A stretch of DNA of 60,595 nt, from positions 1 to 60,595 of the forward strand of contig CAZIPE010000004.1 in NCBI GenBank assembly GCA_964541305.1, written 5' to 3'. Both the position numbers and the translations under genes were made by a program. Within the stretch, counting starts at the first letter, position 1; each line of letters starts with the position of its first letter. Source of the stretch: an uncultured Candidatus Saccharibacteria bacterium (lineage in GTDB: Bacteria > Patescibacteriota > Saccharimonadia > Saccharimonadales > UBA7683). The notes below the pieces were generated by a model. That model worked only from the letters and a program-made list of their open reading frames with translations, ran no database searches and was not told where the DNA came from. Positions 41,706 through 60,595 of this stretch are shown here, in pieces.

Positions 41706-41737
41706 TGAATGTAGTCACAAATGTGAGAGGGAACACA

Positions 41738-43321: not shown

Positions 43322-44419
43322 GTGAACATTCAATTAACCCAGCCTAATTTGCAAAAAGCACTCAGCACCATGTCACGTGTAGCTAGCAGCAAAACTGCCC
43401 TACCGATTCTCTCCAACGTACTTATTAAAACGACCGACGAAGGCATTGAATTCTCGGCTACCAATCTTGAGGTAGCCGTTACCCACAAAGCAAGTGGAAA
43501 AGTCACTAAACCCGGTCAACTCACCGTTCCGGCCCGTCTGTTACATGAATTCATTACCCAACTCCCCAAAGATACTACCGTTTCTTTGGCGTTTGAAAAG
43601 AACAAGCTAGCCATAAAAGCTGGTACCTATAGCTCACACATCCAAGCGACTGCAGTTGACGACTTCCCCGCCCTTCCTGAAGTTCCCACAAAAAACAGTA
43701 TCGACGTAAATGCTCAGCTCCTTCAGGAGGCACTCACAAAAACAATCCTTGCCTCATCCCACGACGAGACCCGTCCGATTCTGACTGGTGTATATATCCA
43801 CACCTTCAAAGACCAGCTCTATTTTACCGCTACAGACGGCTATCGATTGGCAGAAATGAAGGTCGGCCCATGTTCGAGTACTATCGAGTGTGTGGTGCCC
43901 TTACAGGCGCTTCAGGACGTACTTAAAATTGCTCAAGACGCCGATAGTGAAACCTGCCAATTATTTTTCAGTGATGGCCAGTTCGCCATAAAGACGGGCG
44001 ATACTCAGCTGATGAGTCGACTTGTTGAAGGACAGTACCCCGAATATCGAAAGCTTATTCCTGAGAACAGTGAGATATCGTGTGAGGTAAGTCGAGAAGA
44101 ACTACAGACGGCCGCAAAACTAGCAGGGCTGTTTTCTCGAGAGAGTGGCGGTAGCATTACTCTCACCGCCTCCGGAGAGGATCAAAAATTTACTGTAGCT
44201 TCTGTTGCTTCTCAGGTTGGAGACAACAGTTCACATATTGATGCGAAAGTTACCGGTAGTGGCGATGTAGTGGTGAATGTCCGCTACCTTAATGATGCGC
44301 TCAGCTGTTTTGGGAGCAAACTCATCACCTTCCGGTTTGGTGGCTCGCTTGCCCCGTGTGTATTAACAGCAAAAGAAGAACCTAACTACCAACACATAGT
44401 TATGCCGCTTAAAAGCTAA
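43322..44419 (+). CDS. dnaN: DNA polymerase III beta sliding clamp
   Basis: GTG start behind AAGGAG. Three-domain clamp pattern (LSNVLIKT..., ATDGYRLA..., MPLK end). Confidence 0.95.
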   Translation: MNIQLTQPNLQKALSTMSRVASSKTALPILSNVLIKTTDEGIEFSATNLEVAVTHKASGKVTKPGQLTVPARLLHEFITQLPKDTTVSLAFEKNKLAIKAGTYSSHIQATAVDDFPALPEVPTKNSIDVNAQLLQEALTKTILASSHDETRPILTGVYIHTFKDQLYFTATDGYRLAEMKVGPCSSTIECVVPLQALQDVLKIAQDADSETCQLFFSDGQFAIKTGDTQLMSRLVEGQYPEYRKLIPENSEISCEVSREELQTAAKLAGLFSRESGGSITLTASGEDQKFTVASVASQVGDNSSHIDAKVTGSGDVVVNVRYLNDALSCFGSKLITFRFGGSLAPCVLTAKEEPNYQHIVMPLKS

Positions 44420-45965
44420 TAAATTCTTCTGCAGTCCTTAGGTCGGTATCGACATATAGTTTAGTATTTTTGATACCGATGCTTTCCAGGTATTTTTGTG
44501 CCTCTATTTTTCGTCTGGTTATTTCTTGTTCCTTCTTTTGTTTGTCTTCATATAAGGGGTCATTTGGTCCTTTAGCAAGAGGATATAGGTAGATCACACC
44601 ATTAAATGCATCAAGATGGTATGTGCTTTTTGTGCAGGGAATAGCATCACTGATAACCCGAGCTTCTTTATTTGAATCAGAATTTATAAGAAAAACCATC
44701 CTACCCGGATCTATATTCTTTCCGGGAGTTTTTAGATAAGCACTCAACTTAATCTTATTGTTAGACAGTACTTGATATGTAGAGTAACTAAGTAGAGGGC
44801 TTTGAAATAAACTATATGCAGAATTATTCTCTATGTTTAATGCCCTCAGGCCAAGTGTTGGGTCGAGGTAAGAAAGAGTGTCACCGTTTAGCCACTGAGT
44901 ATCAAGATCGGTATTATCAAAATTAACCCCCCCTATTTGTTTTCCGTTGCCATCTAAGACGACCACTCGTTTATCGCTAGTTGATAATGCGACTAGGTTA
45001 TTATCAGGTGATAAGACTATCCTTGAGACAGAATAATTTGAGTCCTTCTTGAAGCTTTTCACTTTGTTAGTTGAAGGACTAAGATAGGTAACAGAATACT
45101 CTGCACTTGAATCCTTTTCATCTTCCCTATACTCTTCTAACGAGGGATCGAATACCTTGCCGCTATATGCAACGAGCGTGCCGTTACGGTAATCTGCTAG
45201 GCCTGTTTCGTATAGTTTAGTACCAGGAGACAAACCCAGTCTCTTACTAGTGGTTAGGTCACCACTGTAGTATCGTGTCTCACTTTTTGTGCTTACAATA
45301 AAGCTATCCTCCGTTTGATTAGAGAAGAAGCCAATTTTATTCAAATCCTCATAGGGTATGATCGGACTACTTTTTAAAACGAATAGCTTGTTCGTTTTTG
45401 GGTTAAGCGCAGCAAGTACATTACCATCACCCTCTCGATTATAGGTTGTTCCTAAAAAAAGCGACTGAGTCGACGCTAGTGCCTCGAAGTGGGCAACGGT
45501 GTTAGTTGGTTCGTCGGAGCTGTAAGGGAATCTGTTCGTAGGACTGTGCTTAGTAAAAGAACTTTTAGGCCCACTGTCTCCTAGCTTCATAGTGTATACG
45601 GTCTTATCTGATAAAACGCTTAGCTCATCGGTGTTATTAGCCAGTTTAACACCGGCCAACTGTTGACCAACAAAAGGCTTAACCTGTACTGAACTCATGA
45701 ATCGAGGCACTTTTACTTCTACGGTGTAGTTGCCCGTATTGTTCGATAGATTCAACAGGTAGGTGCCGCTTTTTAATGGTCTTCCTATACTGTAGTTCTC
45801 GAAAGAGCCCTTAAGGGGCTTGATTGTTGCCACCCACGACGTATTACTATCTATAACAATCCTGCCGTGACTGGCTACCCAAAAGAAAGTGCCTGCAACT
45901 ATTGCAACAACAAACAACAAAATGGCGTATCGACCAAACCTACTTTTCAGTGAAGACATTATCAT
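44409..45965 (-). CDS. N-terminally anchored, beta-rich extracytoplasmic protein; last gene of the T4SS-like operon
   Basis: A single N-terminal TM (YAILLFVVAIVAGTFFWVA), then ~480 aa rich in short beta-strand repeats (propeller-like). Its start overlaps the upstream stop (ATGA). Its 3' end overlaps dnaN by 11 nt. Confidence 0.5.
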   Translation of the reverse strand: MIMSSLKSRFGRYAILLFVVAIVAGTFFWVASHGRIVIDSNTSWVATIKPLKGSFENYSIGRPLKSGTYLLNLSNNTGNYTVEVKVPRFMSSVQVKPFVGQQLAGVKLANNTDELSVLSDKTVYTMKLGDSGPKSSFTKHSPTNRFPYSSDEPTNTVAHFEALASTQSLFLGTTYNREGDGNVLAALNPKTNKLFVLKSSPIIPYEDLNKIGFFSNQTEDSFIVSTKSETRYYSGDLTTSKRLGLSPGTKLYETGLADYRNGTLVAYSGKVFDPSLEEYREDEKDSSAEYSVTYLSPSTNKVKSFKKDSNYSVSRIVLSPDNNLVALSTSDKRVVVLDGNGKQIGGVNFDNTDLDTQWLNGDTLSYLDPTLGLRALNIENNSAYSLFQSPLLSYSTYQVLSNNKIKLSAYLKTPGKNIDPGRMVFLINSDSNKEARVISDAIPCTKSTYHLDAFNGVIYLYPLAKGPNDPLYEDKQKKEQEITRRKIEAQKYLESIGIKNTKLYVDTDLRTAEEFISF

Positions 45966-47428
45966 TCCGGTAGTCCACCATAGGCCTTGATAAGAACTGG
46001 CTGGACATTAAGAAATGCATATCCACTACACGCGGCACCACTACATCCTGGCCGATTGGTTGCGGGTGGTGGTTGCATGTCAAAATGGAGATGTGGGGCG
46101 GTACCACACGCCTTTTCACCCACCTGTCCGAGAGGTGTCGCTGCTTCAACAGACTGTCCTTTAGCTACCTTTATCGATCCGAGCTGCATGTGGGTGTAAT
46201 AGTATACATTACTGTCTGAACCAAGAATAACAACGCTAGAACCACAACTACTAGCCCTATCTCTAGACAATACAACAGTCCCCTCCTTAGCTGCTATTAC
46301 AACCGTCCCTACTGGCACATGTATATCCGCTGCATTATAGTCATGATGACAGTTTGCTTGACTAGAATAACACCATATTCCACCACCTACACCAGTTTTG
46401 ATGGCACCCTTCGTGGTTACTAGAGGAAATGTGAAGCCGTCAACTTCTGCGACACCACCCCCTCTACCACCCGGAGTCCCATCATCACAACCACTGCCCG
46501 AAGACGAATCACCACCCGTTTCTGTTTCTTTGTCAGGACTTGCTTCATTGCCAGAGCTATCACCAGAATTATCGTTTTCTACAGGCGCTCCTCCGCCGTA
46601 AACCAGCTTACTCGGATCCCTAGCTCCTGTGCGCTGTTCATATGCCTCAGTACCAATAATTGTTGATGCCCTATTACGATAGTTTGATTTCATTCCCCTT
46701 AAAAAACCCATCATTTTTTGGTAATAAGCTTCTTCGCCATCTATCTTATTTTGCTCTGCCCACCATCCATTGCCCGGGAATTGCGTGTAGTGCGTGTAGT
46801 TGTACAGTACTTTAGATGCGTCAGAATTTTTGTCGAGAAGAGCTTCAATAATTCGAGTGTACCTAGGCAACAACATGGTTCCACCAGTAGCCTTTATGCC
46901 GACATCAAAACTTGCATATGCCTGACGTCCGTCACCACCTCCATTAGCGTAGGGCATCGCTTCAGGATCGTCACGAAGAGCACTAGTATTAAAGAGGTTA
47001 AATACCGACCTGTTATTGATGTCGCCACCCTCACCCCAGGCGAAGGCGAGGAGTGCTGCGGCGTGTTCCTCGGTAACAACATCTTCTCTTGGTGCCCCCT
47101 TGAAATCTGCTATATACTTCAATACTTCAATGATATACTGCTCCATAATGTAGGGACCTTCAATCCCACTGTTCCAAGCAACGAAAGTCTCTCCCGCACT
47201 TGGGCTTCCGCCGGTTCCACCACCCGTAGCGCATTTCCCGTTTTCATCATCACCATTTGATCTATATGCTGGCCAACCACTCCTCAAATCCTTAAGGTCA
47301 CTATCTGATATGGCATTAATAACGCCAGTGTTAGTTGCCGACAGCACCAAGATGACAAGGGTATACAATAATCTATGCAGTGCCTTTTTAGAAGCGCACA
47401 TTCTAAAGAAGTGTGTAATCAATGACAT
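45962..47428 (-). CDS. Secreted two-domain protein with a C-terminal M23 (LytM-type) metallopeptidase
   Basis: Signal/anchor sequence, an unknown ~270-aa N-domain, a Gly/Ser/Asp linker, then M23 motifs HHDYNAADIH and APHLHFD. Confidence 0.8.
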   Translation of the reverse strand: MSLITHFFRMCASKKALHRLLYTLVILVLSATNTGVINAISDSDLKDLRSGWPAYRSNGDDENGKCATGGGTGGSPSAGETFVAWNSGIEGPYIMEQYIIEVLKYIADFKGAPREDVVTEEHAAALLAFAWGEGGDINNRSVFNLFNTSALRDDPEAMPYANGGGDGRQAYASFDVGIKATGGTMLLPRYTRIIEALLDKNSDASKVLYNYTHYTQFPGNGWWAEQNKIDGEEAYYQKMMGFLRGMKSNYRNRASTIIGTEAYEQRTGARDPSKLVYGGGAPVENDNSGDSSGNEASPDKETETGGDSSSGSGCDDGTPGGRGGGVAEVDGFTFPLVTTKGAIKTGVGGGIWCYSSQANCHHDYNAADIHVPVGTVVIAAKEGTVVLSRDRASSCGSSVVILGSDSNVYYYTHMQLGSIKVAKGQSVEAATPLGQVGEKACGTAPHLHFDMQPPPATNRPGCSGAACSGYAFLNVQPVLIKAYGGLPE

Positions 47429-50400
47429 TAGGGCACCCCGATATGAATGTGGTTACAACTATCCGTATGAAGACGAACCTGATTTATTGGGTTAATTGGA
47501 ATGTTTGAACAGTTCACTTCACCCATTGAAGACCCATCTGGTAATATGCCGGTTATCGCCTGCATAAACGGCCTGTCTGAGTCGCCACCAGTGGCCCTCC
47601 TGCCGTTTACAGTATTTATATCTGCAGCCCGTCCTTTGTAGTGAAGTGATCCCGAGGTATGACAGCCGTTTGTAATATACCCATACCCTACAGCGTAACT
47701 CTCACTTATTTTAAGCATTACCCCTAGTAGGGTTTCACTGATCGGCGTAGAAGAGCCTGCATTACACCTTGCTTCTATTGCAGCTGGTTTTCCTTGTGCT
47801 ATAGCCTCAATTCCAGCTCTTGCTAACGGGGTTGTAAAGGTTATGTTAGGGGTGTCAAGAATTTTTTGAGCAAGACTTTGCGCGTCTCCAGAAGGGAGCT
47901 CACCGTTAGACCCACCCGAATCACCACCCCCACCATCTGTACCAGAGGGGCTGGTGCTACTCACGTTTTGTAGGTCAATAAGTTGTCCAAGCGTTCCTTG
48001 ATCGGGATCCACTTTTTGTGCATCGTCACTTAACCCACCATCCTTTCGATAGAGGCGATACCGGAAAGCACCCTCTGTTTTCATTGCAGACTCACAATAT
48101 TTTCTTACTGTTCTACCATCACGGACTTTATTCAGACCGTACAGATATAGAGGTGTTTCGAAACAGACATTATATGCCTCGTGTAAATCTAACAATCGTC
48201 TACCTTGTTCTACCCATCTCGCATTCTCTCTTGGCCAGTACGACGGTTCCTGCATCTTGGCCAGCTCAGCTTCGCTCCAGCCCACACTAATGGTGCCATA
48301 GGCTCGTGGATTATTGTATTCATCACCACCAACTGCATATACCAATCCTGAACCCGAGCTTGTGGCTATAGCCATCCTGTTTTGTGCGTTTGCAATTGAG
48401 GCTAACGGATTTAATGATTTGAAAGCAAACTGTCGCGTCTTTTCCAGTAGACTGCTTGGTCCAGTGGGGAAAGAAACAGCAAACTGACTACCCGTAGAGT
48501 ATGGGTTATCTAAACTTGCAAGCCGATGCCAGAGTGATTTCTTCTGCAGTAGAGCTGTTCGCCGCTCTTTTGTTACTTGATCGAGACGACCCAGTTCTTG
48601 GACGCTTAATTCTCTGCCTCCGCCCTGTAAACCCTCTTGGTTGGATAGTAACTTAAATCCGGCATCTTGTTTTCCGATTAATCGACGCTGATCATCAGTT
48701 CCAGGCTGACTTGTTCCTTTGAGTTGTTCAAGAAAGATATTAAACGCGGCTGCAATACCAAACTGTGTGGCTACCTCAACAGATCCTTTTTTTACGAATG
48801 CCAACGAGAACCTCTTCAGAGATTCTTTAAAGGTTAATTTTACGGCAGTCTCAACTCCAACTTTTGCTCCCGTACTGGCTGCGGCACTTGTTCCTCCGCT
48901 TGGAATCGCAGCAGCGGCCTGGAGGGCTACTTCGCCTATAGCAAGTATGAGTTGCCCAGCATTACTGTTTAACGCCTTACATACCCGAGCAATGTATGCG
49001 TTAACAACATCCTGTACCGCGTCTCCAACCCCAGGGATCCAGCCTGCGACACCTTGTAGGGCTGTGATGCCAGTCGCCCCTTCGACAATAGCAACTATTG
49101 CCGCAAAGAACTTGTAAATAATAGTGTCGGTATCAACACGAGGGCTATCAGCGATATCAATATCTTCAGATTTATCACTTAGTGTTTCAACACCAACAGC
49201 ACGTTGATAAGCGTATGATTCTTCAAAACTCCCTTGACGCTTGACTTCGGCGTCAACCGCTTCAGCCGTAGTGTCGCCGTTTGCTGTTTGGTCTGCTGCA
49301 CTGGATAGTAGCGCGGCACCCCGCATCATCTCATCGGATTTATTTTTTGCAACAGATGGGAGCTGGGTCATATAGTCTTTTGCGCCACAATATAATGTTC
49401 CAACCAGTGCCGCGATACTTACCTTTCCCGCTATTTGTCGGATAGTAGATTGTCCAACAGATCTTGCCGATGCCTTGGCAGCAGCGCGCGTAACGTCATC
49501 AGTGCTGTCTAGTTCTTCAGCAAATTCCTTAGCGAATTTCTCGCCACCCTCCTCTACTGGTGGCAGGCTACTGTTCAGTTTTCTGGTTGTCATTCTCTCA
49601 TAGGCGCTAAGAATTGCATCTTTAAACGTCTTTATTTTCCGTGCTTTGTTTGCCCAGTAACTGAGCCTAATGTTAGCTGATTCCATAATAGCGTTGGCGG
49701 TCTTGGTGCGATAAAACCTACTTTCTTCGGCAAAAAGGCTTGATTCTTGCATGGCAAGGTCAAGCTCTTTTAGTAGTTTCTTGTCATTTTTATAGTTACC
49801 AACAAAATTCACTTTTGAACTTTGCGAGAGCTTAATTTCTTGCCCTCCAACAGTTATGCTAGTAATTCCCTGCTTGGGACCCCTTACCCACCGGTTTTTA
49901 ACGGTTCCAGTATTGAATGTTAGTGCATCGGCGTCACCCAGTGTCTTGAGTGATTTCTGTGCATCAAAACGGGACAGCCTATCAAGTACACTTCTTCTCC
50001 CAAGAGCATTTAGTCGTGCACCCCCAGTAGACTCCTCGACTGATTCTTGCAGTGCATACTGTGTCGATCTTTTATAGTTCGCTAGATGTAGTCTCGCGAA
50101 ATTATATGTCTGAAGTACTTGTGCAAGTTGTCTCACTCCGAGCCCACTACTCAAAAACATTATTAAGAAAATGAGCGCAATGATTGCTCCGCCACCACCA
50201 AGCCCACCAGCGGCTATCAGCACCTTCTTTTTAGTTGATGCCTTTTTGAATATACTACTTAGCTTTCCTATTTTCCCATCACCCCCGGACTTCAACAAGC
50301 TTGACTTCTCTGTACCAGAAGTACTTGACGTTATATCGCTACCGCTACTCTCAGCATTCAGCAAAGCATCACGGTCTTGGTCTCCTGTGTATCTAAAACC

Positions 50401-50544
50401 GTCACTGATTCCCGCATCAATTTGGTCGTCCAGAGCTTTGTTCTCTGGGCTATTGACCATTTTGTTAAATTCTTCCTCGTACTTGCTCTGAGCTGGGTTT
50501 CTATCCGGGTCGAAATCTATCTCATTATCAAGCTTTGTCTTCAT
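47428..50544 (-). CDS. 1038-aa membrane-anchored protein with a C-terminal LAS/M15-type (VanY/Hedgehog-fold) zinc peptidase domain
   Basis: TM at about aa 110-135 (GGGGAIIALIFLIMFL). A long helical/hydrophobic middle is followed by a poly-Gly/Ser linker. The C-terminal motifs are SLHYKGRAADI (H-x6-D) and NHIHIG (HxH). Confidence 0.65.
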   Translation of the reverse strand: MKTKLDNEIDFDPDRNPAQSKYEEEFNKMVNSPENKALDDQIDAGISDGFRYTGDQDRDALLNAESSGSDITSSTSGTEKSSLLKSGGDGKIGKLSSIFKKASTKKKVLIAAGGLGGGGAIIALIFLIMFLSSGLGVRQLAQVLQTYNFARLHLANYKRSTQYALQESVEESTGGARLNALGRRSVLDRLSRFDAQKSLKTLGDADALTFNTGTVKNRWVRGPKQGITSITVGGQEIKLSQSSKVNFVGNYKNDKKLLKELDLAMQESSLFAEESRFYRTKTANAIMESANIRLSYWANKARKIKTFKDAILSAYERMTTRKLNSSLPPVEEGGEKFAKEFAEELDSTDDVTRAAAKASARSVGQSTIRQIAGKVSIAALVGTLYCGAKDYMTQLPSVAKNKSDEMMRGAALLSSAADQTANGDTTAEAVDAEVKRQGSFEESYAYQRAVGVETLSDKSEDIDIADSPRVDTDTIIYKFFAAIVAIVEGATGITALQGVAGWIPGVGDAVQDVVNAYIARVCKALNSNAGQLILAIGEVALQAAAAIPSGGTSAAASTGAKVGVETAVKLTFKESLKRFSLAFVKKGSVEVATQFGIAAAFNIFLEQLKGTSQPGTDDQRRLIGKQDAGFKLLSNQEGLQGGGRELSVQELGRLDQVTKERRTALLQKKSLWHRLASLDNPYSTGSQFAVSFPTGPSSLLEKTRQFAFKSLNPLASIANAQNRMAIATSSGSGLVYAVGGDEYNNPRAYGTISVGWSEAELAKMQEPSYWPRENARWVEQGRRLLDLHEAYNVCFETPLYLYGLNKVRDGRTVRKYCESAMKTEGAFRYRLYRKDGGLSDDAQKVDPDQGTLGQLIDLQNVSSTSPSGTDGGGGDSGGSNGELPSGDAQSLAQKILDTPNITFTTPLARAGIEAIAQGKPAAIEARCNAGSSTPISETLLGVMLKISESYAVGYGYITNGCHTSGSLHYKGRAADINTVNGRRATGGDSDRPFMQAITGILPDGSSMGEVNCSNIPINPINQVRLHTDSCNHIHIGVP

Positions 50545-50546
50545 TC

Positions 50547-52424
50547 TCAGGATCCTTGGTTGGCAGCAATATTACCAACATTATTACCTTGAGTCATCAC
50601 CTGAAAAGCCTCTTGTGCACGCTCTGCTACCTCTTGCACCTTCTTAATTTCTTCTGGGTTGGTGGTGATAAGGCTCGTTTCGGTTGGGCTGGCAATAATC
50701 TGCATGTGAATGTGGTTTTGGCCTGCAAATAACAACCCTTGGCCAATTGGGAATTGGCTGAGTCGTTTGGTTTCCTCGCTCGTAAGCTTAAACACCGAAG
50801 AGAGTACATCAACCGCCGAGGTCGACTGTTTGAGAAGAATTTGCATAGAGGAGTTAGAGACAATTGCACGGCCAACAGGACTGCTCATCATATCTTCTAC
50901 ATCCTGACTGATAGTGGTAAGTCCCAGGTAGTATTTGCGGGCGCGTTTAGCCACCGAGAACATGAAATTGGCGGAGTCGGGGTACTTCAAAAGTTGCCAG
51001 GCCTCATCAATGATTAAATTACGTCGACGACGATCTGATTTTGTTCTGTTCCAAATGTGATTAAGCACAATATACATTGCTACGGGCCTTAATTCGTCTT
51101 CAAGATCACGGATATTGAAGACCACCATGCTGTTGTTAATCTCAACATTACTTTGTTGCGAGAATATGCCCGCAAAGGTACCAGTAGTATATTTTCTGAG
51201 CCGTTGGGCCATGCTTGGGCCAGTACCCTGCATGTGAAGCAGGGTCTCGTATAAGTCGCCGATAGTCGGAGGCGGAGTTTGGTGAGTAAGCGGGTCGCTG
51301 GTGATACCCGCCTTGGTATAGGTATCAATTAACGCCTGATCCAAATCAGCCTCTTCAACAGGGTTGAGCGCGCCCCCCATCATGAGTCGCATGAGACCAT
51401 GTAAGGTAATGAGTACCGACCGCAGGGCATTGGCAGACTCTTCTTTATCCGTAACTTGGGGTAGATCGAACGGATTTATACGAGTTGTTGAATCAAGACT
51501 CATGCGTATATAGCTTCCGCCAACCGCATCACACAGTCGCTCATATTCATTTTCGGGGTCAATAATAACAATTTCAGTTCCGAGCATCATCGAACGCACC
51601 GCCTCGAGTTTCACCGCGAATGATTTACCCGCACCAGATTTTGCAAAGACCACCATGTTAGCGTTCTCGAGAGTAAATCTATCAAACAGAACCAAACCAT
51701 TATTGTGCATATTAATACCGTAGAGTATGCCGTTTTCCTGCGTAAGATCGGCACTGGTGAACGGAAAGCTGGTGGCAAGAGCACCGGTGTTCATGTTGCG
51801 TCGTACCTGAAGTTGGTCGGTAAATTGTGGCACGGTCGAATTAAGCCCCTGCTCCATCTGTACAGTGGCTGGTTTTGAATAGACGAGCTGTTGACCAAGC
51901 ACGGTCTCAACTTTGTGTTGGATATATTCAAGCTCTTCTAGGCTCTGTGAATACAGAGTAATGTACAGACCAAAACGGAAAAACCGCTCTTCACCAATTT
52001 GTAAACTATCTCTTAGTGACTCGGCATCAATAATAGCTGCTTGTTTACCAGGGTCGCGCACCCGACCCTTCTCGGCATCTATCTGTAAGCCAGCTTCAAG
52101 TTGACTCACTTTTTTACGTAAATTTTCCAACACTACACGAGAAGCGACCGGGTAAATGAACATCGAAACATCCACCTCCTCATCCATATTAATGATTGAA
52201 GACAACCAACCTGTATAGAGTTGCCGTGGATATCCGTAGACGTAGTAAGCACGGGCGTAGCGAGTGCCTAGGCGATAATGACCAGATTCTATCTCTAAAC
52301 TACTTGGCGCAACAAAGTCGCGCATCTCGGAAATACCTTTGCGAAACGCCTCCTCGACTTCAATTTGCTCACGGACGCGTTGTTGTTGTGCCTGGGTAAG
52401 TGCGTTTGGCTTCTTTTTTGCCAT
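50547..52424 (-). CDS. virB4: VirB4/TrbE/PrgJ-type type IV secretion ATPase
   Basis: Walker A VFAKSGAGKSF, Walker B NLIIDEAWQLL, and the VirB4-type N-domain (YARAYYVYGYPRQLYTGWL). Confidence 0.9.
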   Translation of the reverse strand: MAKKKPNALTQAQQQRVREQIEVEEAFRKGISEMRDFVAPSSLEIESGHYRLGTRYARAYYVYGYPRQLYTGWLSSIINMDEEVDVSMFIYPVASRVVLENLRKKVSQLEAGLQIDAEKGRVRDPGKQAAIIDAESLRDSLQIGEERFFRFGLYITLYSQSLEELEYIQHKVETVLGQQLVYSKPATVQMEQGLNSTVPQFTDQLQVRRNMNTGALATSFPFTSADLTQENGILYGINMHNNGLVLFDRFTLENANMVVFAKSGAGKSFAVKLEAVRSMMLGTEIVIIDPENEYERLCDAVGGSYIRMSLDSTTRINPFDLPQVTDKEESANALRSVLITLHGLMRLMMGGALNPVEEADLDQALIDTYTKAGITSDPLTHQTPPPTIGDLYETLLHMQGTGPSMAQRLRKYTTGTFAGIFSQQSNVEINNSMVVFNIRDLEDELRPVAMYIVLNHIWNRTKSDRRRRNLIIDEAWQLLKYPDSANFMFSVAKRARKYYLGLTTISQDVEDMMSSPVGRAIVSNSSMQILLKQSTSAVDVLSSVFKLTSEETKRLSQFPIGQGLLFAGQNHIHMQIIASPTETSLITTNPEEIKKVQEVAERAQEAFQVMTQGNNVGNIAANQGS

Positions 52425-53278: not shown

Positions 53279-53377
53279 GTATATAAATATCTATCTAACT
53301 TCGACTTAAGCTACTTCTTATGCTTTAAATTATGTCACATCAAGAGGAAAATATGAAGTCCTGGATGGTGTTGATGC

Positions 53378-54304
53378 TTAGTGTAGTTTTATCTCTATGG
53401 ACCCGTCGTCATTTTTGTGCGGAACGTCTGCTAAATCTGATTTTATTGGGTTACCCTCATTGTCTTCAGTACTTACACTAGGTGATTCATTGTCGGGCAC
53501 ATCATCATCTGCCGACGCAATAGGACTTGCTGGTGGCTGTGTAATTATAGGTGTAACTTGTGGTGCTGTGTCTTCGAGACGATGAACAGGAAGTGGTTGT
53601 GGATTAGGGTGACTTAATTCTAAGGGTTGATCTCTTTTCTGCGCTACATTTACTGCATGTTGTCGCATCGAGGTATCGGCAATGTTTAGCCGGGCATCAA
53701 ATTTTTGATTAATAGTGTTTCTTTCGTCATAGGGATCGCTCGGCTGCGTGTACACATCAATACTTGCTGGCTGACTTTGAGCTATGTCATGAACAGCTAT
53801 AAGCCTATCAGAATCTGTTGCATAATGTGCGAACTGTGGATTCTGCCAGTCGTAGGGCTGCTTGCTTGCCCAGCCGCGCGAGTCCATCATCAGCGAAAGT
53901 CCGCTCAATCTGCTTACTGCCTCATCACCACTGAAATCTTTTGTAAGATGCTTTTCGACCACTGGCGGTGCGGTAATCTTTACGCGCTCCTCGTACCCTT
54001 CTTGACCCCAAATTCGTACACGAGGCTTAAAGTAGTAGCCAATTGCCGAAGCTAAATATACCTCAACCGGCTGATCTTTCCGTTGATATAGACCAAGTAC
54101 TAAAAACATAAGAGTAAACGGTAGCCACAGAAGCGCAGATACAGGATGTACTTTTGTGAAGAAGAAATAGGTAAGATATCCAAATGCAAGTCCAACAATA
54201 GTAAAGATAAGTTGCTTCAAGCTTAAAAAGCCAACAATCTTGTCTTCTGCTTCTACATCCTGAGGTACTTTATGCGTTGCCATTTTATTTGAAAGATCTC
54301 CCAA
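53378..54304 (-). CDS. PrgI-family (VirB3-like) T4SS membrane protein with a long Pro/Asp-rich C-terminal tail
   Basis: HKVPQDVEAEDKIVGFLSLKQLIFTIVGLAFGY followed by two TM helices is the PrgI-family signature. The start may be at M8 (54283). Confidence 0.7.
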   Translation of the reverse strand: MGDLSNKMATHKVPQDVEAEDKIVGFLSLKQLIFTIVGLAFGYLTYFFFTKVHPVSALLWLPFTLMFLVLGLYQRKDQPVEVYLASAIGYYFKPRVRIWGQEGYEERVKITAPPVVEKHLTKDFSGDEAVSRLSGLSLMMDSRGWASKQPYDWQNPQFAHYATDSDRLIAVHDIAQSQPASIDVYTQPSDPYDERNTINQKFDARLNIADTSMRQHAVNVAQKRDQPLELSHPNPQPLPVHRLEDTAPQVTPIITQPPASPIASADDDVPDNESPSVSTEDNEGNPIKSDLADVPHKNDDGSIEIKLH

Positions 54305-54310
54305 TTAATT

Positions 54311-57300
54311 TTATAGTGTAATGCCGTTTCTGGTAGCGTAGTCCTCGATTATCTTCTGTGCAGCTTGAAGTTTGGGTGCAGTGGTTCGTGCTTTCTCTGG
54401 CGAGAGTCCATTTATCTTAGCCTGCAGTCCAGCATGTGCACCTCTAAGTTCATGCTCAGTTCTTGGGGAGCCAGTTGCATTAAGCCAGGGAGTAACCTTG
54501 TCGTTACCAGCCTCAGCGCTTAGTACAGTTTGTCCAACTGTACTACCCGCTAAAGTAGCGGTTGCTTGTTCGGTTGATGTATTAAAATAACTTGCTGCAT
54601 CACTCGGCATAGACCCACTAAGTACGGGATTACTAAGAACATTCCCAACGCTTGCTTGTGATGCAGCGGGAGCAACCTGATTGAATTTCTGCCAGCCTTC
54701 CACCTTCATGCTGGCTTTGTTTTGTTCTGTAGCCCCCAAGAATGCCTGAGCATATTTGGCCTCCATGGTTGCGTCAGTGTCAGATGCTGTTACGTCAGTT
54801 GCAAGGTGCGGCGATATAGCCTTCATTTCAGAGAAGTTTTTACCCATTGCATCGTTCCATGTCTTGAGGCTATTAGGTTTACCAGCCTTACCTTCTTTGA
54901 GCATTTGTTTTTGCACTTTCTCTAATCCATTAACGTCCTTATATTGGGTCATTAAGGCTATTGCTGCTGAGCGTTGAGCATCGGAATAGTTTCCTGCACC
55001 AGCAACACCACTCTCATCTTTATTCAACGCGACTTCAGATAGCTTATCCTTTGCTTGGGTGATATCCATTCCACGCACAGATTCTGCAAGACCCTGAACT
55101 TGTTGTTTATGGATTGCTTCTTCAGTTTGTCCAAGCATCGATGCACGGACAGACTCAGAACGTTGACGATTTTTAGACCCAATTCCCTTCATACCAAAGG
55201 CCTGGTGTCTTCTATATTGTGCTCGCCTACCATCGCCCTGCAAGCTTTCGAATAATTCCTGTTGACCTTTCTGCTCTTTTCCTGCCGCTTTAAGCTTCTT
55301 TCTGCGACCATATTGAGAAGAATTGTCCCGGTAATTCTTACTCCTATCAATCAAGCCCTTCGATCGGTCATTAATCATACCTGTAATATTGCCCAGTGCC
55401 CCACCAGCCGCTTTAAAGAGGGTCGGAATTAAGAAGTAAGGTAGAACTATGGCTACGAATGCCATTGCAGAAGTCATTAGTCCCAGTCCAGTCGATGGAC
55501 CAGTTTTTGTTATAAGCCAGGACACAAAGATTCCAGAAGCAAATGCCGCCATAATCATCGGGTACATTAAAAGCATTTGTATGAATAGCTTCCACCATCT
55601 TTGGAACCACTTTTCACCACCCGGTAATGCCCAAAGGACAAAGGCGATTGGAGCAAAAACAATTAACATTATTATTAGAATACGCCTTAATAGTAATACG
55701 GTTAGGGCAACTATTGCGGCAACAAATACAATTGCCATAACAGGTAGCAGTATCGCTCCACCACTGGCTATTGCAAGATAGACGAGCGTTCCGAGTCCTG
55801 CCACTACTGCGGTTTGAAATGCACCAGAACCATCCGCGTTAATTGCATCTGTAAAAGCAATTGTTGCTGCCTCACCCTCACCCACCACCTTTATGCCTCC
55901 GCCCGCATTCCCGGCGCTGGTTATAGGCGCTAATATAATTTCCTTCGCCGCTCCACCAAGAGTATTTGTTATTGATATGAGGTTAGCACATATTGAAAAT
56001 GAAAGATTAGCTAAAATAAGGGCAATAATCACTCGAGGCAGCAGCTTCTTAACAGTGTAATTACTGAAAATTCCAAGATCTAATGCCGTAGATATGATTA
56101 CGATAAGAAATGCAACGATAAACAGTATATTGGCGGTTGTGAGTAGGCCACTCCAAACCTCTTTTAGTGCTGACTGTCCATCTCCTTCGGTTGGATTAAA
56201 TTCTAACAATGACTCTATCCCCTTGTTTACGCGGTCTATTGCATCTGCAAGTAGTTGACTAAGACCACACACAATCCATTTAATAGGGTTCTTTGGGACT
56301 AACCCAAATAGAGTTTTTCCACCGTCATAGCATTTTTCCCCACCAGGGTCATCATCAAGATTTTCCTCATCGTCTTCGGCGGTGCTTGGAGGAGCCTCTT
56401 CGTCTAGGGCGGTTTCTAAGTCTTCACCATATGCATTAAATAAACACTCTTTTATGGCTGCAGTCTGTTCTGCGGTAGTGTATCCCTCTGGCTGACCGTT
56501 ATAGGGAGGGTAGTATATCTGCGTGTCACCATCTACTAGCCATTTTGCAATAATTTTCATCAGGTCTACCATAGGTATTCTGGCCATTGCTGGGTTATTT
56601 GCTGCGACACAGGCTAGGAGCTTGTCGGTACCTTCAGCTAAGAACATCCCGAGTACGTTTTGATATTTTTCTTCATCGCTTAGGTCATCATATTCATCAT
56701 CTATATTAAAGTCCAAAAGACGGTTACTGAGGACAGCATCCTTTAGCTCGTCGCAGTTCATAACCCCGTCTTCGTAGTTGGGCCTATCTTTCCCATACAG
56801 TGTTTCAACAAGGAATCCCACATTGTTGCTGTCGTCTCTCCCGTCCTTAGGCACCCACAACTCTTCGTTGTACTGATTGCTCTCATCTCGCTCTTCTGGG
56901 TTCGCAGGGTCGTTCCACTCCCACTTCCAGCACTGGTTGAATTTTGTAAGCAGGATGTCTTTTGCGTATGCTATGTACCACTCTTCAGCTCCATCGTTAA
57001 GAGCTGCGGCATATGCAGCCATATCGTTTCGTAGTTTGTTCCGCGCGATTAATCTAGCTGCTGAATCTATACCCGGGCACTGAATATCCCCCTCACTAAT
57101 GCAGTCTTTAAGGTAATACTTTCCACCCCGTAATGTTGTATCGTAGAATGAATTAAGGAAAGCAATGCGACCAGAGTTTCCTGTACCATATTTAGACTCG
57201 ACGTAGCGTTTAATTACGGTTTCACAACGCAGTGTCTCATCCCTGCCATCTCCCAAATTAATGTCTGTCTTGGCGCTCACTGCGAAAGACTTATCACCAG

Positions 57301-57640
57301 AAAAACCGTAGAAGCTAGATGAACTATAATCAGATGCCGATATAGATGTTGGAATACCAAGCCACTCTAGCCCGCTTTGGGTGTCGCTAGTACCTTCAAT
57401 GCACGAACCGGCATTAGAGCCATCTGGGTCTTTAGTAAAACCACCCCTTATTGCGTCGTATAGCGCAATTTCTTTATTGCTAGGAGTCGCTGCAAGCGCA
57501 CTCTGCATGTAGAGTGGACTCACCAGGCTCAAGATGAGCGCAGTGAAGAATATTGCACAGAATAGTGATGGTACCCGTTTAATTTTTTTCAGTGATAATG
57601 TTCTAAATATCCACATAATGTTAATCAAATGTAATTTCAT
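54311..57640 (-). CDS. VirB6/TrbL/PrgH-like polytopic T4SS channel protein (1109 aa) with a Cys-rich ectodomain and a ~350-aa hydrophilic C-terminal tail
   Basis: Signal/anchor sequence, a ~450-aa Cys-containing extracytoplasmic domain, about 6-7 TM segments including VFAPIAFVLWALPGGEKWFQRWWKLF (TrbL-like), then a long polar tail. Confidence 0.6.
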   Translation of the reverse strand: MKLHLINIMWIFRTLSLKKIKRVPSLFCAIFFTALILSLVSPLYMQSALAATPSNKEIALYDAIRGGFTKDPDGSNAGSCIEGTSDTQSGLEWLGIPTSISASDYSSSSFYGFSGDKSFAVSAKTDINLGDGRDETLRCETVIKRYVESKYGTGNSGRIAFLNSFYDTTLRGGKYYLKDCISEGDIQCPGIDSAARLIARNKLRNDMAAYAAALNDGAEEWYIAYAKDILLTKFNQCWKWEWNDPANPEERDESNQYNEELWVPKDGRDDSNNVGFLVETLYGKDRPNYEDGVMNCDELKDAVLSNRLLDFNIDDEYDDLSDEEKYQNVLGMFLAEGTDKLLACVAANNPAMARIPMVDLMKIIAKWLVDGDTQIYYPPYNGQPEGYTTAEQTAAIKECLFNAYGEDLETALDEEAPPSTAEDDEENLDDDPGGEKCYDGGKTLFGLVPKNPIKWIVCGLSQLLADAIDRVNKGIESLLEFNPTEGDGQSALKEVWSGLLTTANILFIVAFLIVIISTALDLGIFSNYTVKKLLPRVIIALILANLSFSICANLISITNTLGGAAKEIILAPITSAGNAGGGIKVVGEGEAATIAFTDAINADGSGAFQTAVVAGLGTLVYLAIASGGAILLPVMAIVFVAAIVALTVLLLRRILIIMLIVFAPIAFVLWALPGGEKWFQRWWKLFIQMLLMYPMIMAAFASGIFVSWLITKTGPSTGLGLMTSAMAFVAIVLPYFLIPTLFKAAGGALGNITGMINDRSKGLIDRSKNYRDNSSQYGRRKKLKAAGKEQKGQQELFESLQGDGRRAQYRRHQAFGMKGIGSKNRQRSESVRASMLGQTEEAIHKQQVQGLAESVRGMDITQAKDKLSEVALNKDESGVAGAGNYSDAQRSAAIALMTQYKDVNGLEKVQKQMLKEGKAGKPNSLKTWNDAMGKNFSEMKAISPHLATDVTASDTDATMEAKYAQAFLGATEQNKASMKVEGWQKFNQVAPAASQASVGNVLSNPVLSGSMPSDAASYFNTSTEQATATLAGSTVGQTVLSAEAGNDKVTPWLNATGSPRTEHELRGAHAGLQAKINGLSPEKARTTAPKLQAAQKIIEDYATRNGITL

Positions 57641-58163
57641 TTAGTTTGAAAGACTTCACTATCTCCGGCGCGTATTTTGATAGCGTTGAATCGCGGTCGT
57701 AGGAAAAACGTATTTGCCATATGTATTTTCCGCCATCTACATAGTATTCATCGGTATTCCCACCTTCGGTCGAAGTTTTAAGTGCCTTTTTGTTGTCAAT
57801 TGTTACTCTAGAAACGATAGTGACTTTTGAAGTGGCAATTTCTTTTTCTAGTGTATCTAAGCCAACGGTTGACGACTTCTGGATAGCCTTAGTAATCTCG
57901 ACTTTATCTGCTGACTTAGGATCAGTACTCTGAAATACAGCACCACTTGCCTGTCGCTTACCCGAGAAAGTCGCAGGGTGCTTAAGAGAAAACTCTTCAG
58001 TCTTAAAGTCTAAGTACTTTGTTCTGTCCAATAGTCCAGGACCACCACCAATAGAGCTCACGATGCTCACTATAATAAATAATAGTACAATGCACCCAAC
58101 AACAATAAGTATTTTTTTTCTCATATTCCCCTGATTGGCCCCGAAGGTTGACGATGGATACAT
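57621..58163 (-). CDS. Bitopic membrane protein; first gene of the T4SS-like operon (VirB8/PrgL-topology candidate)
   Basis: Short N-terminus, one TM (ILIVVGCIVLLFIIVSIVSSI), then a ~135-aa alpha/beta ectodomain. The start may be ATG 58124. Confidence 0.5.
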   Translation of the reverse strand: MYPSSTFGANQGNMRKKILIVVGCIVLLFIIVSIVSSIGGGPGLLDRTKYLDFKTEEFSLKHPATFSGKRQASGAVFQSTDPKSADKVEITKAIQKSSTVGLDTLEKEIATSKVTIVSRVTIDNKKALKTSTEGGNTDEYYVDGGKYIWQIRFSYDRDSTLSKYAPEIVKSFKLNEITFD

Positions 58164-58330
58164 AAAACTAAAGAATCTCTCCTGTGTAGATAATGTTTAT
58201 ATAATACCAATAAGCATGAACATATTCTATAACGTAATTTATGAACTCGTTTATACCCAAAAAACAAAAAAACACCTTCGTTGCAATAAAGGCCTTGATT
58301 ATGATGTTAATTTGAGTGACTATATAAAAC

Positions 58331-58840
58331 GTGATGAATAAAAAACACGCGATACCCATACTAGTTATTGCGCTACCATTGCTTCTGATATTGTCAAATT
58401 TTATGGAGGTTCGTGCTGATCCGCAATTTACAGAAGTAACCTGTGCAGATGGCTTTGTGGCTCAGGTTGAAAAGGATGACCCTATACTTGACGCAGAAGA
58501 TTTTATTGCAGCATGTGGCAGTCATGGGTACAATGAATCTGACACCCCTCCCACTCCGCCTACCTCTAATACTATCGAAGAAACAGAAGATGTGGGGGGC
58601 ACTGGATCAAGCGAGCTTGACTCGTTGCTAAATAAAGTAATAAATGGGCTTTCGGCCCTTGTTGGTTTGGTTATAGTTATCAGCCTAATTGGCGCGGGTA
58701 TACAGTATATGACCGCTCGAGATAATGCTTCACAAGTCGCTGCCGCTAAAGGAAGAATAGTGATGACGATACTGGCATTTGTATTGTTCATGATGGGCTA
58801 TGCACTACTGCAGTGGTTAATTCCGGGTGGAGTCTTCTAG
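58331..58840 (+). CDS. VirB2/TrbC-like T4SS pilin paralogue 1
   Basis: Signal peptide, a two-Cys head (VTCADG...AACGSHG), a Pro/Thr linker, then a hydrophobic hairpin GAGIQYMTARDNASQVAAAKGRIVMTILAFVLF. Confidence 0.65.
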   Translation: MMNKKHAIPILVIALPLLLILSNFMEVRADPQFTEVTCADGFVAQVEKDDPILDAEDFIAACGSHGYNESDTPPTPPTSNTIEETEDVGGTGSSELDSLLNKVINGLSALVGLVIVISLIGAGIQYMTARDNASQVAAAKGRIVMTILAFVLFMMGYALLQWLIPGGVF

Positions 58841-58926
58841 TTACTTGTTCGATTGTATACAAAGCGGTATTATCGTGTAGAGGCGAATGATTCATGACGA
58901 GTAACTTATGAAAGCAAAAAACTAGC

Positions 58927-59361
58927 ATGATTAAAAAAATAAAAGCAGCTGCCATTAGTCTTGTGCTTGTCGCAGGTTTTTTTGCTGGTGGAGCGACGGC
59001 TTTCGCAAAATGTGAGCCAGGAAAGGGCAGCTTACCTCCCGCAGTTTTTGTCCCTTGGTATGAATATCTTGAGGGTGAAGATGTGGGTGGTAAATGTAAG
59101 CCCGTTCTCGGCGATGACTATGTAAAATCAGTCAGCCTTATTGGTCTTGCAGTCATAGGCACGCTCATGAGAATTTCCGGTATCCTTGCAACGGCGTATT
59201 TAATCTGGGGTGCAATCCAGTACATTACGAGTCAGGGTGATCAGAACGGAATTGCGAATGCTAAAAATACCATCTTGAATGCAATTGTCGGGCTTGTGAT
59301 AGTTCTGTTATCGATTGGTATAGTTCAGTTCGTCGGGAATCTTGCAAGGAGTTCGCCATGA
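58927..59361 (+). CDS. VirB2/TrbC-like T4SS pilin paralogue 2
   Basis: Signal peptide, a two-Cys head (AKCEPGKG...GGKCKPV), and the hairpin WGAIQYITSQGDQNGIANAKNTILNAIVGLVIV. Confidence 0.65.
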   Translation: MIKKIKAAAISLVLVAGFFAGGATAFAKCEPGKGSLPPAVFVPWYEYLEGEDVGGKCKPVLGDDYVKSVSLIGLAVIGTLMRISGILATAYLIWGAIQYITSQGDQNGIANAKNTILNAIVGLVIVLLSIGIVQFVGNLARSSP

Positions 59362-59636
59362 TTGAGTCAGCTAGTATAGTAATGAGTATTTTGGGCGGCT
59401 TGCCAAAAGTTGATTTTACCGCAACAGTTACCAACGTATTTCAGGTGGTGTTTGGCATAATTGGTATTCTTAGTGTTTTGTTTGTTGCCTTCGGAGGTTT
59501 TAAATATGTTATTTCAGCAGGTAATCCTGAAGGTATTCGACAGGCAAAAGACACGATCCTCTACGCATTAATTGGCTTGGCGATTGGTATATCTGCGAAT
59601 ATCATCATTGCCTTTACGCTTGGGCGGCTTGGATGA
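59358..59636 (+). CDS. VirB2/TrbC-like T4SS pilin paralogue 3 (minimal, no Cys head)
   Basis: The 92-aa protein has the hairpin FGGFKYVISAGNPEGIRQAKDTILYALIGLAIG. Its start overlaps the upstream stop. Confidence 0.6.
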   Translation: MIESASIVMSILGGLPKVDFTATVTNVFQVVFGIIGILSVLFVAFGGFKYVISAGNPEGIRQAKDTILYALIGLAIGISANIIIAFTLGRLG

Positions 59637-60016
59637 AAAAAGTTATTCTAAGTATTTTTGTAATGACTTCCCTTGTCTTTGCTGTGGCGGTGCCAGTTTC
59701 TGCTTACGACCCCTTTGAGGAGCCGTGTTCGGCTGGGGGCAGTAGTGATTTTTGCAAAAGTGCCACTCAACAAGCGAGCGAAGATCGCATCGTCGGACCA
59801 AACGGTATTTTGACGAAAATAACCCAGTTCGTAGTGTTTCTAGCGGGCGGTTTTGCGGTAATTATGGTTACACTGGGCGGTGCTAAATATACTTTTTCAG
59901 CAGGAGACCCAAACGCTATAAAGTCTGCCAAAGACACAATCCTCTACGCCCTCGTTGGCCTGGTCGTTGCAATATTCTCGCAGGCGATGGTTGTATTTGT
60001 GCTTTCAAAGCTATAA
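59633..60016 (+). CDS. VirB2/TrbC-like T4SS pilin paralogue 4
   Basis: Signal peptide, a two-Cys head (EPCSAGGSSDFCKS), and the hairpin LGGAKYTFSAGDPNAIKSAKDTILYALVGLVVA. Confidence 0.65.
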   Translation: MKKVILSIFVMTSLVFAVAVPVSAYDPFEEPCSAGGSSDFCKSATQQASEDRIVGPNGILTKITQFVVFLAGGFAVIMVTLGGAKYTFSAGDPNAIKSAKDTILYALVGLVVAIFSQAMVVFVLSKL

Positions 60017-60053
60017 AGTGAAACTAAATCATTAGCAGAAAGGTATAGATATT

Positions 60054-60595
60054 GTGAAGAAGTACATACAAAGTTTCATAGCAATAATGCTTATTACAAC
60101 TGGTCTCATTGGCTCATCATTGTTTACGGTTTCAGTATTTGCGCAAGCACCACCAACCACACCGCCACCAACCACAGGAACACCGGCCAGCTCAGCTTGT
60201 GATGGCATCAAGGCTGCGGGTGGGTCATGTGATACTGCTGCGGGTAACGAAGGATTTTATAATCTTATGAAAGTCGTTGTAAACACACTTAGCGTTGTGG
60301 TCGGTGCGGTGTGCGTAGTGATGATTATCGTTGGCGGCTTTCGTTATGTTATTTCGGCCGGTGATAGCAACGCATTAGGTGCTGCCAAGAACACCATTCT
60401 CTACGCCCTCGTTGGCCTGGTTATTGTATTGTTTGCTCAGGTGATTGTTCAATTTGTTTTTGTAAATGCCAACCAGAGCGCTACTCCCACTGGTGGTTCA
60501 TGTGATCCTGCTGATCCCGCCTGCGCCACACCGCCACCAACCACACCGCCACCAACCACACCGCCACCAACCACACCGCCACCAACCACACCGCC
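60054..60595 (+). CDS. VirB2/TrbC-like T4SS pilin paralogue 5 with Pro/Thr-repeat extensions; 3' end off the window (not in the supplied ORF track)
   Basis: Hand translation from GTG 60054 gives MKKYIQSFIAIMLITTG...FAQAPPTTPPPTTGTPASSACDGIKAAGGSCDT...VGGFRYVISAGDSNALGAAKNTILYALVGLVIV...GGSCDPADPACATPPPTTPPPTT... The frame is still open at the window end. Confidence 0.6.
   Translation, partial: MKKYIQSFIAIMLITTGLIGSSLFTVSVFAQAPPTTPPPTTGTPASSACDGIKAAGGSCDTAAGNEGFYNLMKVVVNTLSVVVGAVCVVMIIVGGFRYVISAGDSNALGAAKNTILYALVGLVIVLFAQVIVQFVFVNANQSATPTGGSCDPADPACATPPPTTPPPTTPPPTTPPPTTP
60526..60595 (+). repeat. Perfect 15-bp tandem repeat (ccacaccgccaccaa; encodes PPPTT), at least 4.6 copies, running off the window
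   Basis: Direct reading finds identical units at 60526, 60541, 60556 and 60571, and a partial unit at 60586. A related copy lies at about 60148..60176 in the same gene. Confidence 0.9.

Follow-up and report, generated by a model that had tools for sequence, protein, structure and literature searches.

An origin-adjacent type IV secretion system of the Patescibacteria clade in a Saccharimonadales genome

The closest described counterparts of the T4SS (type IV secretion system) considered here, which is encoded beside dnaN in a 60.6-kb stretch of one Saccharimonadales genome (contig CAZIPE010000004.1; "the window" below, to which all absences reported here refer), come from other members of the Patescibacteria. 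In the cultivated Southlakia epibionticum, an "apparent T4SS (SEML1_0006-0019)" was found essential by transposon sequencing (Tn-seq), is nearest to Gram-positive conjugative systems, and includes a series of essential pilins with no coupling or relaxase proteins in the cluster (Wang 2023, PMC10633639). The tables for strain ML1 give the same gene order as in the window, beside dnaA and dnaN, with a 1113-amino acid (aa) protein tailed by a Hedgehog/DD-peptidase domain (at 951-1105 of SEML1_0007), VirB4, a 293-aa protein, PrgI, TrbL/VirB6 and six pilins (PMC10633639). A survey of the Patescibacteria placed their VirB4 proteins in a clade sister to the mating-pair-formation (MPF) class MPF-FATA, with TrsD as the commonest neighbour and with PrgI and VirB6; it counted 441 arrays of 2-11 pilin genes (mean identity 25%), found relaxases to be rare, and reported T4SSs near dnaA and dnaN (Quiñonero-Coronel 2025, PMC12102498). 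A 2025 review of T4SS nomenclature treats these systems as a special monoderm case (PMC12857230).

Comparison with these systems and with related loci indicates, at a probability of roughly 0.85, that the window holds a chromosomal, origin-fixed and vertically inherited Saccharibacteria T4SS of the Patescibacteria clade that descends from monoderm conjugation machinery of the MPF-FATA type and serves an epibiotic lifestyle. An initial annotation, made from the DNA letters alone, had cautiously held that this combination of parts was not a characterised T4SS architecture. That claim fails, since the architecture has been described in S. epibionticum (PMC10633639), surveyed (PMC12102498) and reviewed (PMC12857230); the window is a variant accessory set of the published Patescibacteria T4SS. 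What it contributes is a second, simpler layout, which has a single protein of VirB6 type, lacks an NTF2-like gene, uses other hydrolases and closes with a gene whose product bears a propeller. Newly added to the published picture are a motor more conserved than DnaN, fast evolution of the envelope parts, swapped hydrolase heads and the β-propeller of the last gene. The class as a whole matters in that it has been kept across a huge uncultivated radiation.

Parts of the machine and their relatives

Eight minus-strand open reading frames (ORFs) run from 58163 to 44409, all at the coordinates that the initial annotation had given them and as closely packed as it had described. The gene for the first protein (p180) overlaps that of VirB6 by 20 nt; gaps of 6 and 99 nt separate VirB6 from PrgI and PrgI from the gene for a 284-aa protein, which has 1 nt in common with virB4. 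A 2-nt gap then precedes the gene for p1038, which shares 1 nt with that of an M23 peptidase, and the latter overlaps the last gene (p518) by 4 nt. The stops of p518 and dnaN overlap convergently by 11 nt (44409-44419). At the opposite end, at least five VirB2-type pilin genes are read divergently from the operon on the plus strand (Table 1). A bidirectional promoter is presumed to lie in the intergenic region between operon and pilin array, where a scan for promoters and terminators returned only weak sigma-70-like consensus matches.

Relatives were drawn from a one-genome-per-species collection, in which VirB4 relatives occurred in 551 candidate stretches. The best 80 loci were compared, with upstream gene content (TrsD, PrgI, VirB6 and pilins) counted in the 50 that had at least 9 kb of upstream sequence. 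Across these 80 loci, nearly all from Saccharimonadales metagenome-assembled genomes (MAGs), VirB4 identity to the window is 71-92%, with the ML1-type loci L054 and L066 at 74%. Three Saccharimonadales-type virB4 loci (L030, L032 and L046; 72-74%) are found in MAGs labelled Woesebacteria, Flaviaesturariibacter and Acidobacteriota, labels that most likely reflect binning contamination and not transfer.

The motor is of monoderm type. The 625-aa VirB4 protein scores 374.7 bits against NCBIfam model NF045971 (CD1110 family; curated cutoff 325 bits) over model positions 172-732 of 752, its clade membership being taken from identity and this model. It also matches PF19044 (3.9e-30) and, in the Pfam scan, TraG P-loop/AAA_10, and its best match in the PDB is the monoderm-type 4AG5 (5e-47, versus 8.5e-5 for TrwK). 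Both the Walker A (GAGKS) and the Walker B (IIDEAW) motifs reported earlier are present within this protein, and the Gram-positive-type core that had been proposed is borne out by VirB4 together with PrgI (PF12666, E = 1.9e-14), the latter found in 49 of the 50 loci. The gene for the 284-aa protein had been correctly delimited but listed as unknown; the protein is in fact TrsD-like, aligning to the start of the CD1110 VirB4 model (positions 2-120, E = 2e-8) and matching TrsD/TraD NF041427 (4.8e-7), with a precomputed match to PF26593 (TraC-like) in the public record. Because these two proteins cover separate, successive parts of one model, VirB4 is split over two genes, an arrangement kept wherever the flank suffices, the TrsD-like gene adjoining virB4 in 50/50 loci. 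The single nucleotide shared by the stop of the first gene and the start of the second suggests that they may be translationally coupled.

The assignment of the large polytopic protein to VirB6/TrbL, also part of the initial annotation, is less direct. A Pfam scan of the window protein gave no match, and neither its transmembrane (TM) region as a profile nor the single sequence matched any PDB sequence. The same protein nonetheless carries a precomputed PF19590 (TrbL_3) match in the public gene-call record, and the TM regions of 11 of 20 orthologues match PF04610 (TrbL/VirB6; best 4.9e-6), so that the assignment stands; a weak NCBIfam match is to the CD3337/EF1877 mobilome membrane protein (0.0025). 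A TM scan resolves a signal or anchor, an N-terminal ectodomain of ~450 aa, five to six TM helices (498-733) and a hydrophilic C-terminal domain of ~375 aa, and it is for such proteins that the term "extended VirB6" has been used (PMC12857230). Gene callers place the start 44 codons downstream of the longest ORF start, giving 1065 aa. VirB6 was found in 48 of the 50 loci, and in the window a copy of the VirB4 N-terminal domain, PrgI/VirB3 and VirB6 all lie in the cluster, as in other T4SSs of the Patescibacteria clade.

Two wall hydrolases follow the motor. The LAS/M15 tail of p1038, as first annotated, is upheld by its zinc-site motifs (SLHYKGRAAD and HIHIG, fitting SxHxxGxAxD and HxH), by weak matches to the Hedgehog N-domain, and by PF02557 (VanY) on a homologue of 87% identity (P0006). 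A homologue search with p1038 returned the query and one close homologue only, and by position it is the orthologue of SEML1_0007. A gene for a protein of ~950-1100 aa stands 3' of virB4 in nearly all related loci. The C-terminal heads of these ~1000-aa proteins differ (of 51, 12 have a LAS head and 12 an M23 head, the other 27 being unassigned), so that the hydrolase module has been swapped from genome to genome. The neighbouring secreted peptidase, likewise foreseen, has an M23 domain matching PF01551 (E = 1.5e-16) and ShyA in the PDB (1.2e-7); its N-terminal domain (~60-320) has no family match, and the sole other copy of that domain is in L004_g2_838. A relationship of p1038 to phage tape measure proteins was also considered and found no support, the PHROGs search of p1038, p518, p180 and VirB6 having given no matches.

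The outermost genes of the operon are the least conserved, with essentially no detectable homologues of either p180 or p518 in the 80 related loci. Among 5.8 billion proteins, p180 retrieves itself and one homologue at 77%; its profile, searched with an E-value limit as lax as 10, matches no upstream ORF in 51 related loci, and in the closest relative (L002) the stretch from VirB6 to the first pilin has no same-strand ORF of at least 70 aa. For p180, Met14 is the start chosen by gene callers (57621-58124, 167 aa). For p518 the same collection yields itself and one homologue at 84%, and 23 representatives are found among 1.84 billion proteins. The description of p518 as anchored and beta-rich proved apt, as its family profile matches WD40-type propeller blades (E = 2e-8) at about residues 295-385, behind an N-terminal TM helix. 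Residues 1-83 match proteins of ~210 aa at the same position in ML1-like loci, of which SEML1_0005, annotated as a PEGA-domain protein, is the S. epibionticum counterpart.

All five pilins exceed the cutoff of PF18895 (T4SS_pilin), in agreement with the at least five divergent VirB2/TrbC-like genes first reported, and two also match TrbC/VirB2. They are only 16-36% identical to one another, and recognisable pilins occur in 39 of the 50 related loci. The fifth carries 15-nt Pro/Thr-rich tandem repeats (PPTT units) on both sides of its hairpin (60150-60595), and both public contigs with the locus end inside this gene just past the repeats. As the repeat probably breaks assemblies at this point, the full array may be longer.

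Set against SEML1_0004-0019, the window shares the succession of dnaA, dnaN, a minus-strand operon and a divergent plus-strand pilin array, and within the operon the small anchored proteins, the hydrolase, the ~1000-aa Hedgehog/DD-peptidase-tailed protein, VirB4, a TrsD-like protein of ~290 aa, PrgI and VirB6. The match is gene for gene except that SEML1_0011 (a second ~1000-aa protein) and SEML1_0012 (an NTF2-like protein) have no counterpart in the window and p180 has none in ML1. Unlike ML1, the window has no recF between dnaN and the operon, an M23 hydrolase takes the place of a lysozyme/lysozyme/cysteine-proteinase protein, and where ML1 ends in two small genes the window has the single p518, with the same N terminus and a β-propeller. 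Compared with the Patescibacteria-clade T4SS as surveyed (PMC12102498), the window shows all the hallmarks and nothing different in kind, its hydrolases being LAS and M23 enzymes and not VirB1 (SLT/CHAP) homologues.

With the wider MPF-FATA group (pCF10 PrgH-I-J-K, pIP501, pGO1 TrsC-D-E and CTn2 CD1110) the window shares a VirB4 that passes the CD1110 cutoff, PrgI, TrsD, VirB6 and anchored wall hydrolases, and, like that group, it gave no matches to the VirB7, VirB9 and VirB10 outer-membrane core. It differs in having VirB2 pilins, in that no relaxase, coupling protein or PrgB-like adhesin was detected in the window, and in having its place on the chromosome next to the origin, where it is passed on vertically, instead of on a mobile element. 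Of the diderm VirB/D4 (MPF-T) parts, VirB5 and VirB11 as well as VirB7, VirB9 and VirB10 were without matches in the family searches of the window.

Table 1. Features of the T4SS locus and of the adjoining origin region (positions in the window; TM, transmembrane)
Feature	Positions	Strand	Description or basis
p180, first operon gene	57621-58163	-	Bitopic (TM 18-36), ~140-aa ectodomain; lineage-specific
Extended VirB6/TrbL-like polytopic protein, 1109 aa	54311-57640	-	TM scan, TrbL matches
PrgI/VirB3-like protein	53378-54304	-	Two TM helices (23-41, 55-73) and a ~200-aa C-terminal extension without assigned domain
TrsD-like protein, 284 aa	52424-53278	-	Counterpart of the detached VirB4 N-terminal domain
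VirB4 ATPase, C-terminal part (motor domain), 625 aa	50547-52424	-	Monoderm (CD1110/MPF-FATA) type
p1038	47428-50544	-	~1000-aa membrane-anchored (TM 119-137) scaffold and LAS (M15/VanY, Hedgehog/DD-peptidase) zinc peptidase tail, ~862-1038
Secreted two-domain wall hydrolase	45962-47428	-	M23 (LytM/ShyA-like) metallopeptidase, C-terminal 364-452
p518, last operon gene	44409-45965	-	N-terminal anchor (TM 14-32), PEGA/Ig-like first domain, β-propeller region ~290-390
Divergent intergenic region, operon versus pilin array	58164-58330		Gene layout
VirB2-type pilin 1	58331-58840	+	Signal peptide, Cys-containing variable region, two-helix hairpin; PF18895 4.3e-9, PF04956 1.5e-5
VirB2-type pilin 2	58927-59361	+	PF18895 1.5e-9; NCBIfam Mbov_0395 pilin-like conjugal transfer protein 5e-7, below cutoff
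VirB2-type pilin 3	59358-59636	+	Shortest, without long N-terminal region; PF18895 1.6e-11
VirB2-type pilin 4	59633-60016	+	PF18895 3.3e-10
VirB2-type pilin 5	60054-60595	+	Pro/Thr-rich C-terminal repeat, cut by window end; PF18895 9.9e-12
rpmH (context, outside the machine)	41376-41513	-	
DnaA-box cluster (context)	41574, 41628, 41677		Between rpmH and dnaA
dnaA (context)	41705-43060	+	Family search confirms
dnaN (context)	43322-44419	+	Family search confirms

Inheritance and rates of change

That the locus lies beside the replication origin is real, because DnaA boxes, two of them perfect and one near-perfect, sit in the spacer between rpmH and dnaA. The same neighbourhood recurs in relatives, where the synteny check called for in the initial annotation found dnaN convergent with virB4 at a distance of 5.4-8.8 kb in 50 of the 55 loci with at least 9.5 kb of downstream sequence. 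Pairwise identities of VirB4 and DnaN across 51 genomes are strongly correlated (r = 0.93, Mantel p = 0.001), and conservation is higher for VirB4 than for DnaN in 99.6% of genome pairs. This synteny and co-divergence argue for vertical inheritance under very strong constraint, as expected of the core, vertically kept machine that had been proposed in preference to an integrative and conjugative element (ICE).

The window itself is consistent with such a history. Its ORF scan detected no relaxase, VirD4/FtsK-type coupling ATPase or VirB11, and no integrase flanking the locus, all as first reported. No direct repeats that would bracket the locus turned up inside it or on the side of dnaN; its other boundary falls outside the window. 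The window's one tRNA and one recombinase both lie 43 kb from the T4SS, across core genes. The base composition, which the initial annotation had likened to that of dnaA and dnaN, agrees with it in part: the GC content at third codon positions (GC3) of virB4 and trsD equals that of the two replication genes, whereas that of the accessory genes is somewhat lower. The compositional outlier of the window is a different region, the surface-glycan cluster.

The constraint is distributed very unevenly among the parts. Relative to the nearest relatives, identity is 86-90% for VirB4, 71-75% for DnaA and 57-60% for DnaN; among the envelope parts it is 53-59% for PrgI, 32-57% for the best-matching pilins, 25-32% for VirB6 and ~27% for p1038. 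Conservation of the motor thus exceeds that of the replication proteins, and at the envelope divergence approaches orphan status.

Five of the 55 loci (L007, L009, L030, L033 and L067) have no dnaN within 10 kb of virB4, so that a place beside the origin is usual for the cluster without being invariable. One of them, L007, is also without recognisable PrgI, VirB6 and pilins nearby.

Function and competing explanations

In an epibiotic machine of this kind, the split VirB4, PrgI and VirB6 would form a membrane translocon, the LAS and M23 enzymes would open the wall of the epibiont itself, and the VirB2 paralogues would build a pilus or conduit towards the host bacterium, with p180 and p518 as putative exposed accessory parts; the whole would serve the epibiotic lifestyle and not conjugation. 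Among T4SSs, that of the Saccharibacteria is, to our knowledge, alone in having been found essential for its own carrier. Both its essentiality and its non-conjugative character are read from S. epibionticum, on the basis of Tn-seq and because a coupling protein and a relaxase are missing from its cluster (PMC10633639). The earlier suggestion of a candidate device for host interaction or uptake is in keeping with these results.

As to the direction of transport, the analysis leans, tentatively, towards the import of macromolecules from the host, above all of nucleic acids. Part of the reason is metabolic, for these epibionts cannot make nucleotides. Part lies in the gene set, since VirB4, VirB2, VirB3 and VirB6 without a nearby coupling protein or relaxase are what the same subtraction leaves in Helicobacter pylori ComB and archaeal Ced. 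ComB and Ced resemble the window in that an ATPase of VirB4 type is combined with a VirB2-like pilin and with membrane parts, without a coupling protein or relaxase (cited in PMC12102498, PMC11665869); they differ in that the sequence relationship is no closer than the common VirB4 fold and, for ComB, in being a diderm system with VirB7, VirB9 and VirB10. The lean towards import draws further on ML1, which can do without comEC but not without the T4SS, together with the ComB precedent (PMC11665869, PMC12857230); on a Minisyncoccota parasite that is reported to take up host RNA and whose tubular structures may be T4SS pili (bioRxiv 10.64898/2026.06.21.733656); and on a detectable, if weak, match of the window VirB4 to the importer protein CedB (1.9e-13), to which a match to CedD (1e-5) can be added.

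A more specific proposal, speculative and on balance unlikely, is that of a modular importer of nucleic acids or macromolecules in which an ultra-conserved motor and a rapidly replaced host-facing set (pilins, LAS/M23 heads, p180 and p518) would together feed a nucleotide-auxotrophic epibiont. If so, the range of hosts open to exploitation would depend on the host-facing set. The contrast in rate between motor and envelope points in any case to the parts on which tests of host range and cargo should center.

Several points weigh against the reading of the locus given here, the lean towards import included. A 2024 perspective calls the role of the T4SS "completely unknown" (PMC11665869), and the functions given here to the locus and its homologues are predictions from sequence. 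A VirD4-like protein or a relaxase could lie outside the 60.6-kb window, and VirD4 homologues are present in many Patescibacteria, mostly far from virB4 (PMC12102498). Because the similarity of VirB4 to CedB is far weaker than that to conjugative VirB4 proteins, it does not tie the window to importers in particular. The hydrolases might just as well attack the wall of the host, in keeping with export, and AlphaFold2 models of p180 and p518, built on two-sequence alignments, were not usable (mean predicted local distance difference test scores of 48.6 and 34.7).

Export of effectors ranks just behind import and is nearly as likely. Here the T4SS would inject or release proteins, possibly the LAS and M23 hydrolases themselves, and so breach and reprogram the host, as T4SSs of pathogens and the Streptococcus suis 89K system do. 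This was the function favoured in the first descriptions (PMC10633639, PMC11665869), and it accords both with the two wall hydrolases in the operon and with the fast evolution of the surface and pilin parts, as expected of a host-facing interface. Such hydrolases, however, are also found in ordinary Gram-positive conjugation, where they open the donor's own wall. Most effector T4SSs, moreover, need a coupling protein, yet none was found in the cluster, the distant coupling-protein homologue of ML1 is not essential (PMC12102498), and the window showed no protein that a recognisable signal would mark as a candidate effector.

An improbable alternative is that the VirB2 pili merely hold the epibiont on its host, with no substrate passing. 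The pilin array is large and diverse, in the manner of the pilin paralogue arrays of Bartonella and Anaplasma that have been read as surface variation (PMC12102498), but Saccharibacteria already attach and move by type IV pili (PMC12857230, PMC11665869), and an adhesion-only role would not account for the very strong constraint under which VirB3, VirB4, VirB6 and the hydrolases are kept, VirB4 above all. Least credible, at a few chances in a hundred, is a conjugative or mobilisable element, with the cluster as its mating-pair-formation module or as a domesticated remnant using a relaxase and a coupling protein elsewhere: the core is homologous to MPF-FATA conjugation systems, a large serine recombinase lies beside tRNA-Asn at the far end of the window, and VirD4 homologues and a few relaxases occur elsewhere in some Patescibacteria genomes (PMC12102498), but the 60.6 kb contain no relaxase, coupling protein or att repeat, rpmH, dnaA, dnaN and a 36-kb glycan cluster separate the recombinase from the T4SS, relaxases occur in only 103 Patescibacteria genomes as against 2,474 virB4 genes in the same dataset (PMC12102498), and the conserved synteny, co-divergence and native composition described above led to rejection of an ICE.

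Origin region and surface-glycan cluster

The spacer between dnaA and dnaN contains an AT-rich palindrome (43262-43293) with 20-nt arms that are 90% complementary, and two DnaA boxes with one mismatch each lie nearby (43115 and 43245). The palindrome may represent a second origin segment or an unwinding element.

The remaining 39 ORFs of the window comprise a surface-glycan cluster and the group jag-yidC-rnpA-rpmH-dnaA-dnaN. From the far left the order is a large serine recombinase, tRNA-Asn, a LexA-like protein, the glycan cluster, jag, yidC, rnpA, rpmH, dnaA and dnaN. The recombinase (46-1554 region; 491 aa), which has no relation to the T4SS, contains Resolvase, Recombinase and Zn-ribbon domains and overlaps at its 3' end the tRNA-Asn gene on the opposite strand (1480-1554); an integrated element situated left of the window may have its edge here. 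At the gathering thresholds of Rfam, nothing besides this tRNA was found in the whole window. The LexA-like protein (1616-2050, 144 aa) has a LexA DNA-binding domain, and the scan gave no peptidase S24 domain in it.

The glycan cluster, of ~36 kb, includes rmlABCD, glmS, glmM, many glycosyltransferase genes, Wzy and Wzm/Wzt. A member of the "23S rRNA-intervening sequence protein" family (5365-5748; PF05635, E = 5.8e-35) is located between one sugar transferase gene and one glycosyltransferase gene. Within the cluster, a block at ~13500-37400 has a GC content of 0.36-0.41, compared with 0.44-0.49 around it. Four of its large ORFs are without a confident Pfam match (23736-25808, 25821-27284, 27313-28617 and 34046-35266) and a fifth (22196-23701) has a sub-threshold SH3 match only; the block also encodes ATP-grasp, TylF methyltransferase and DegT aminotransferase proteins and Wzm/Wzt. 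This block resembles a variable glycan island that may have been exchanged.

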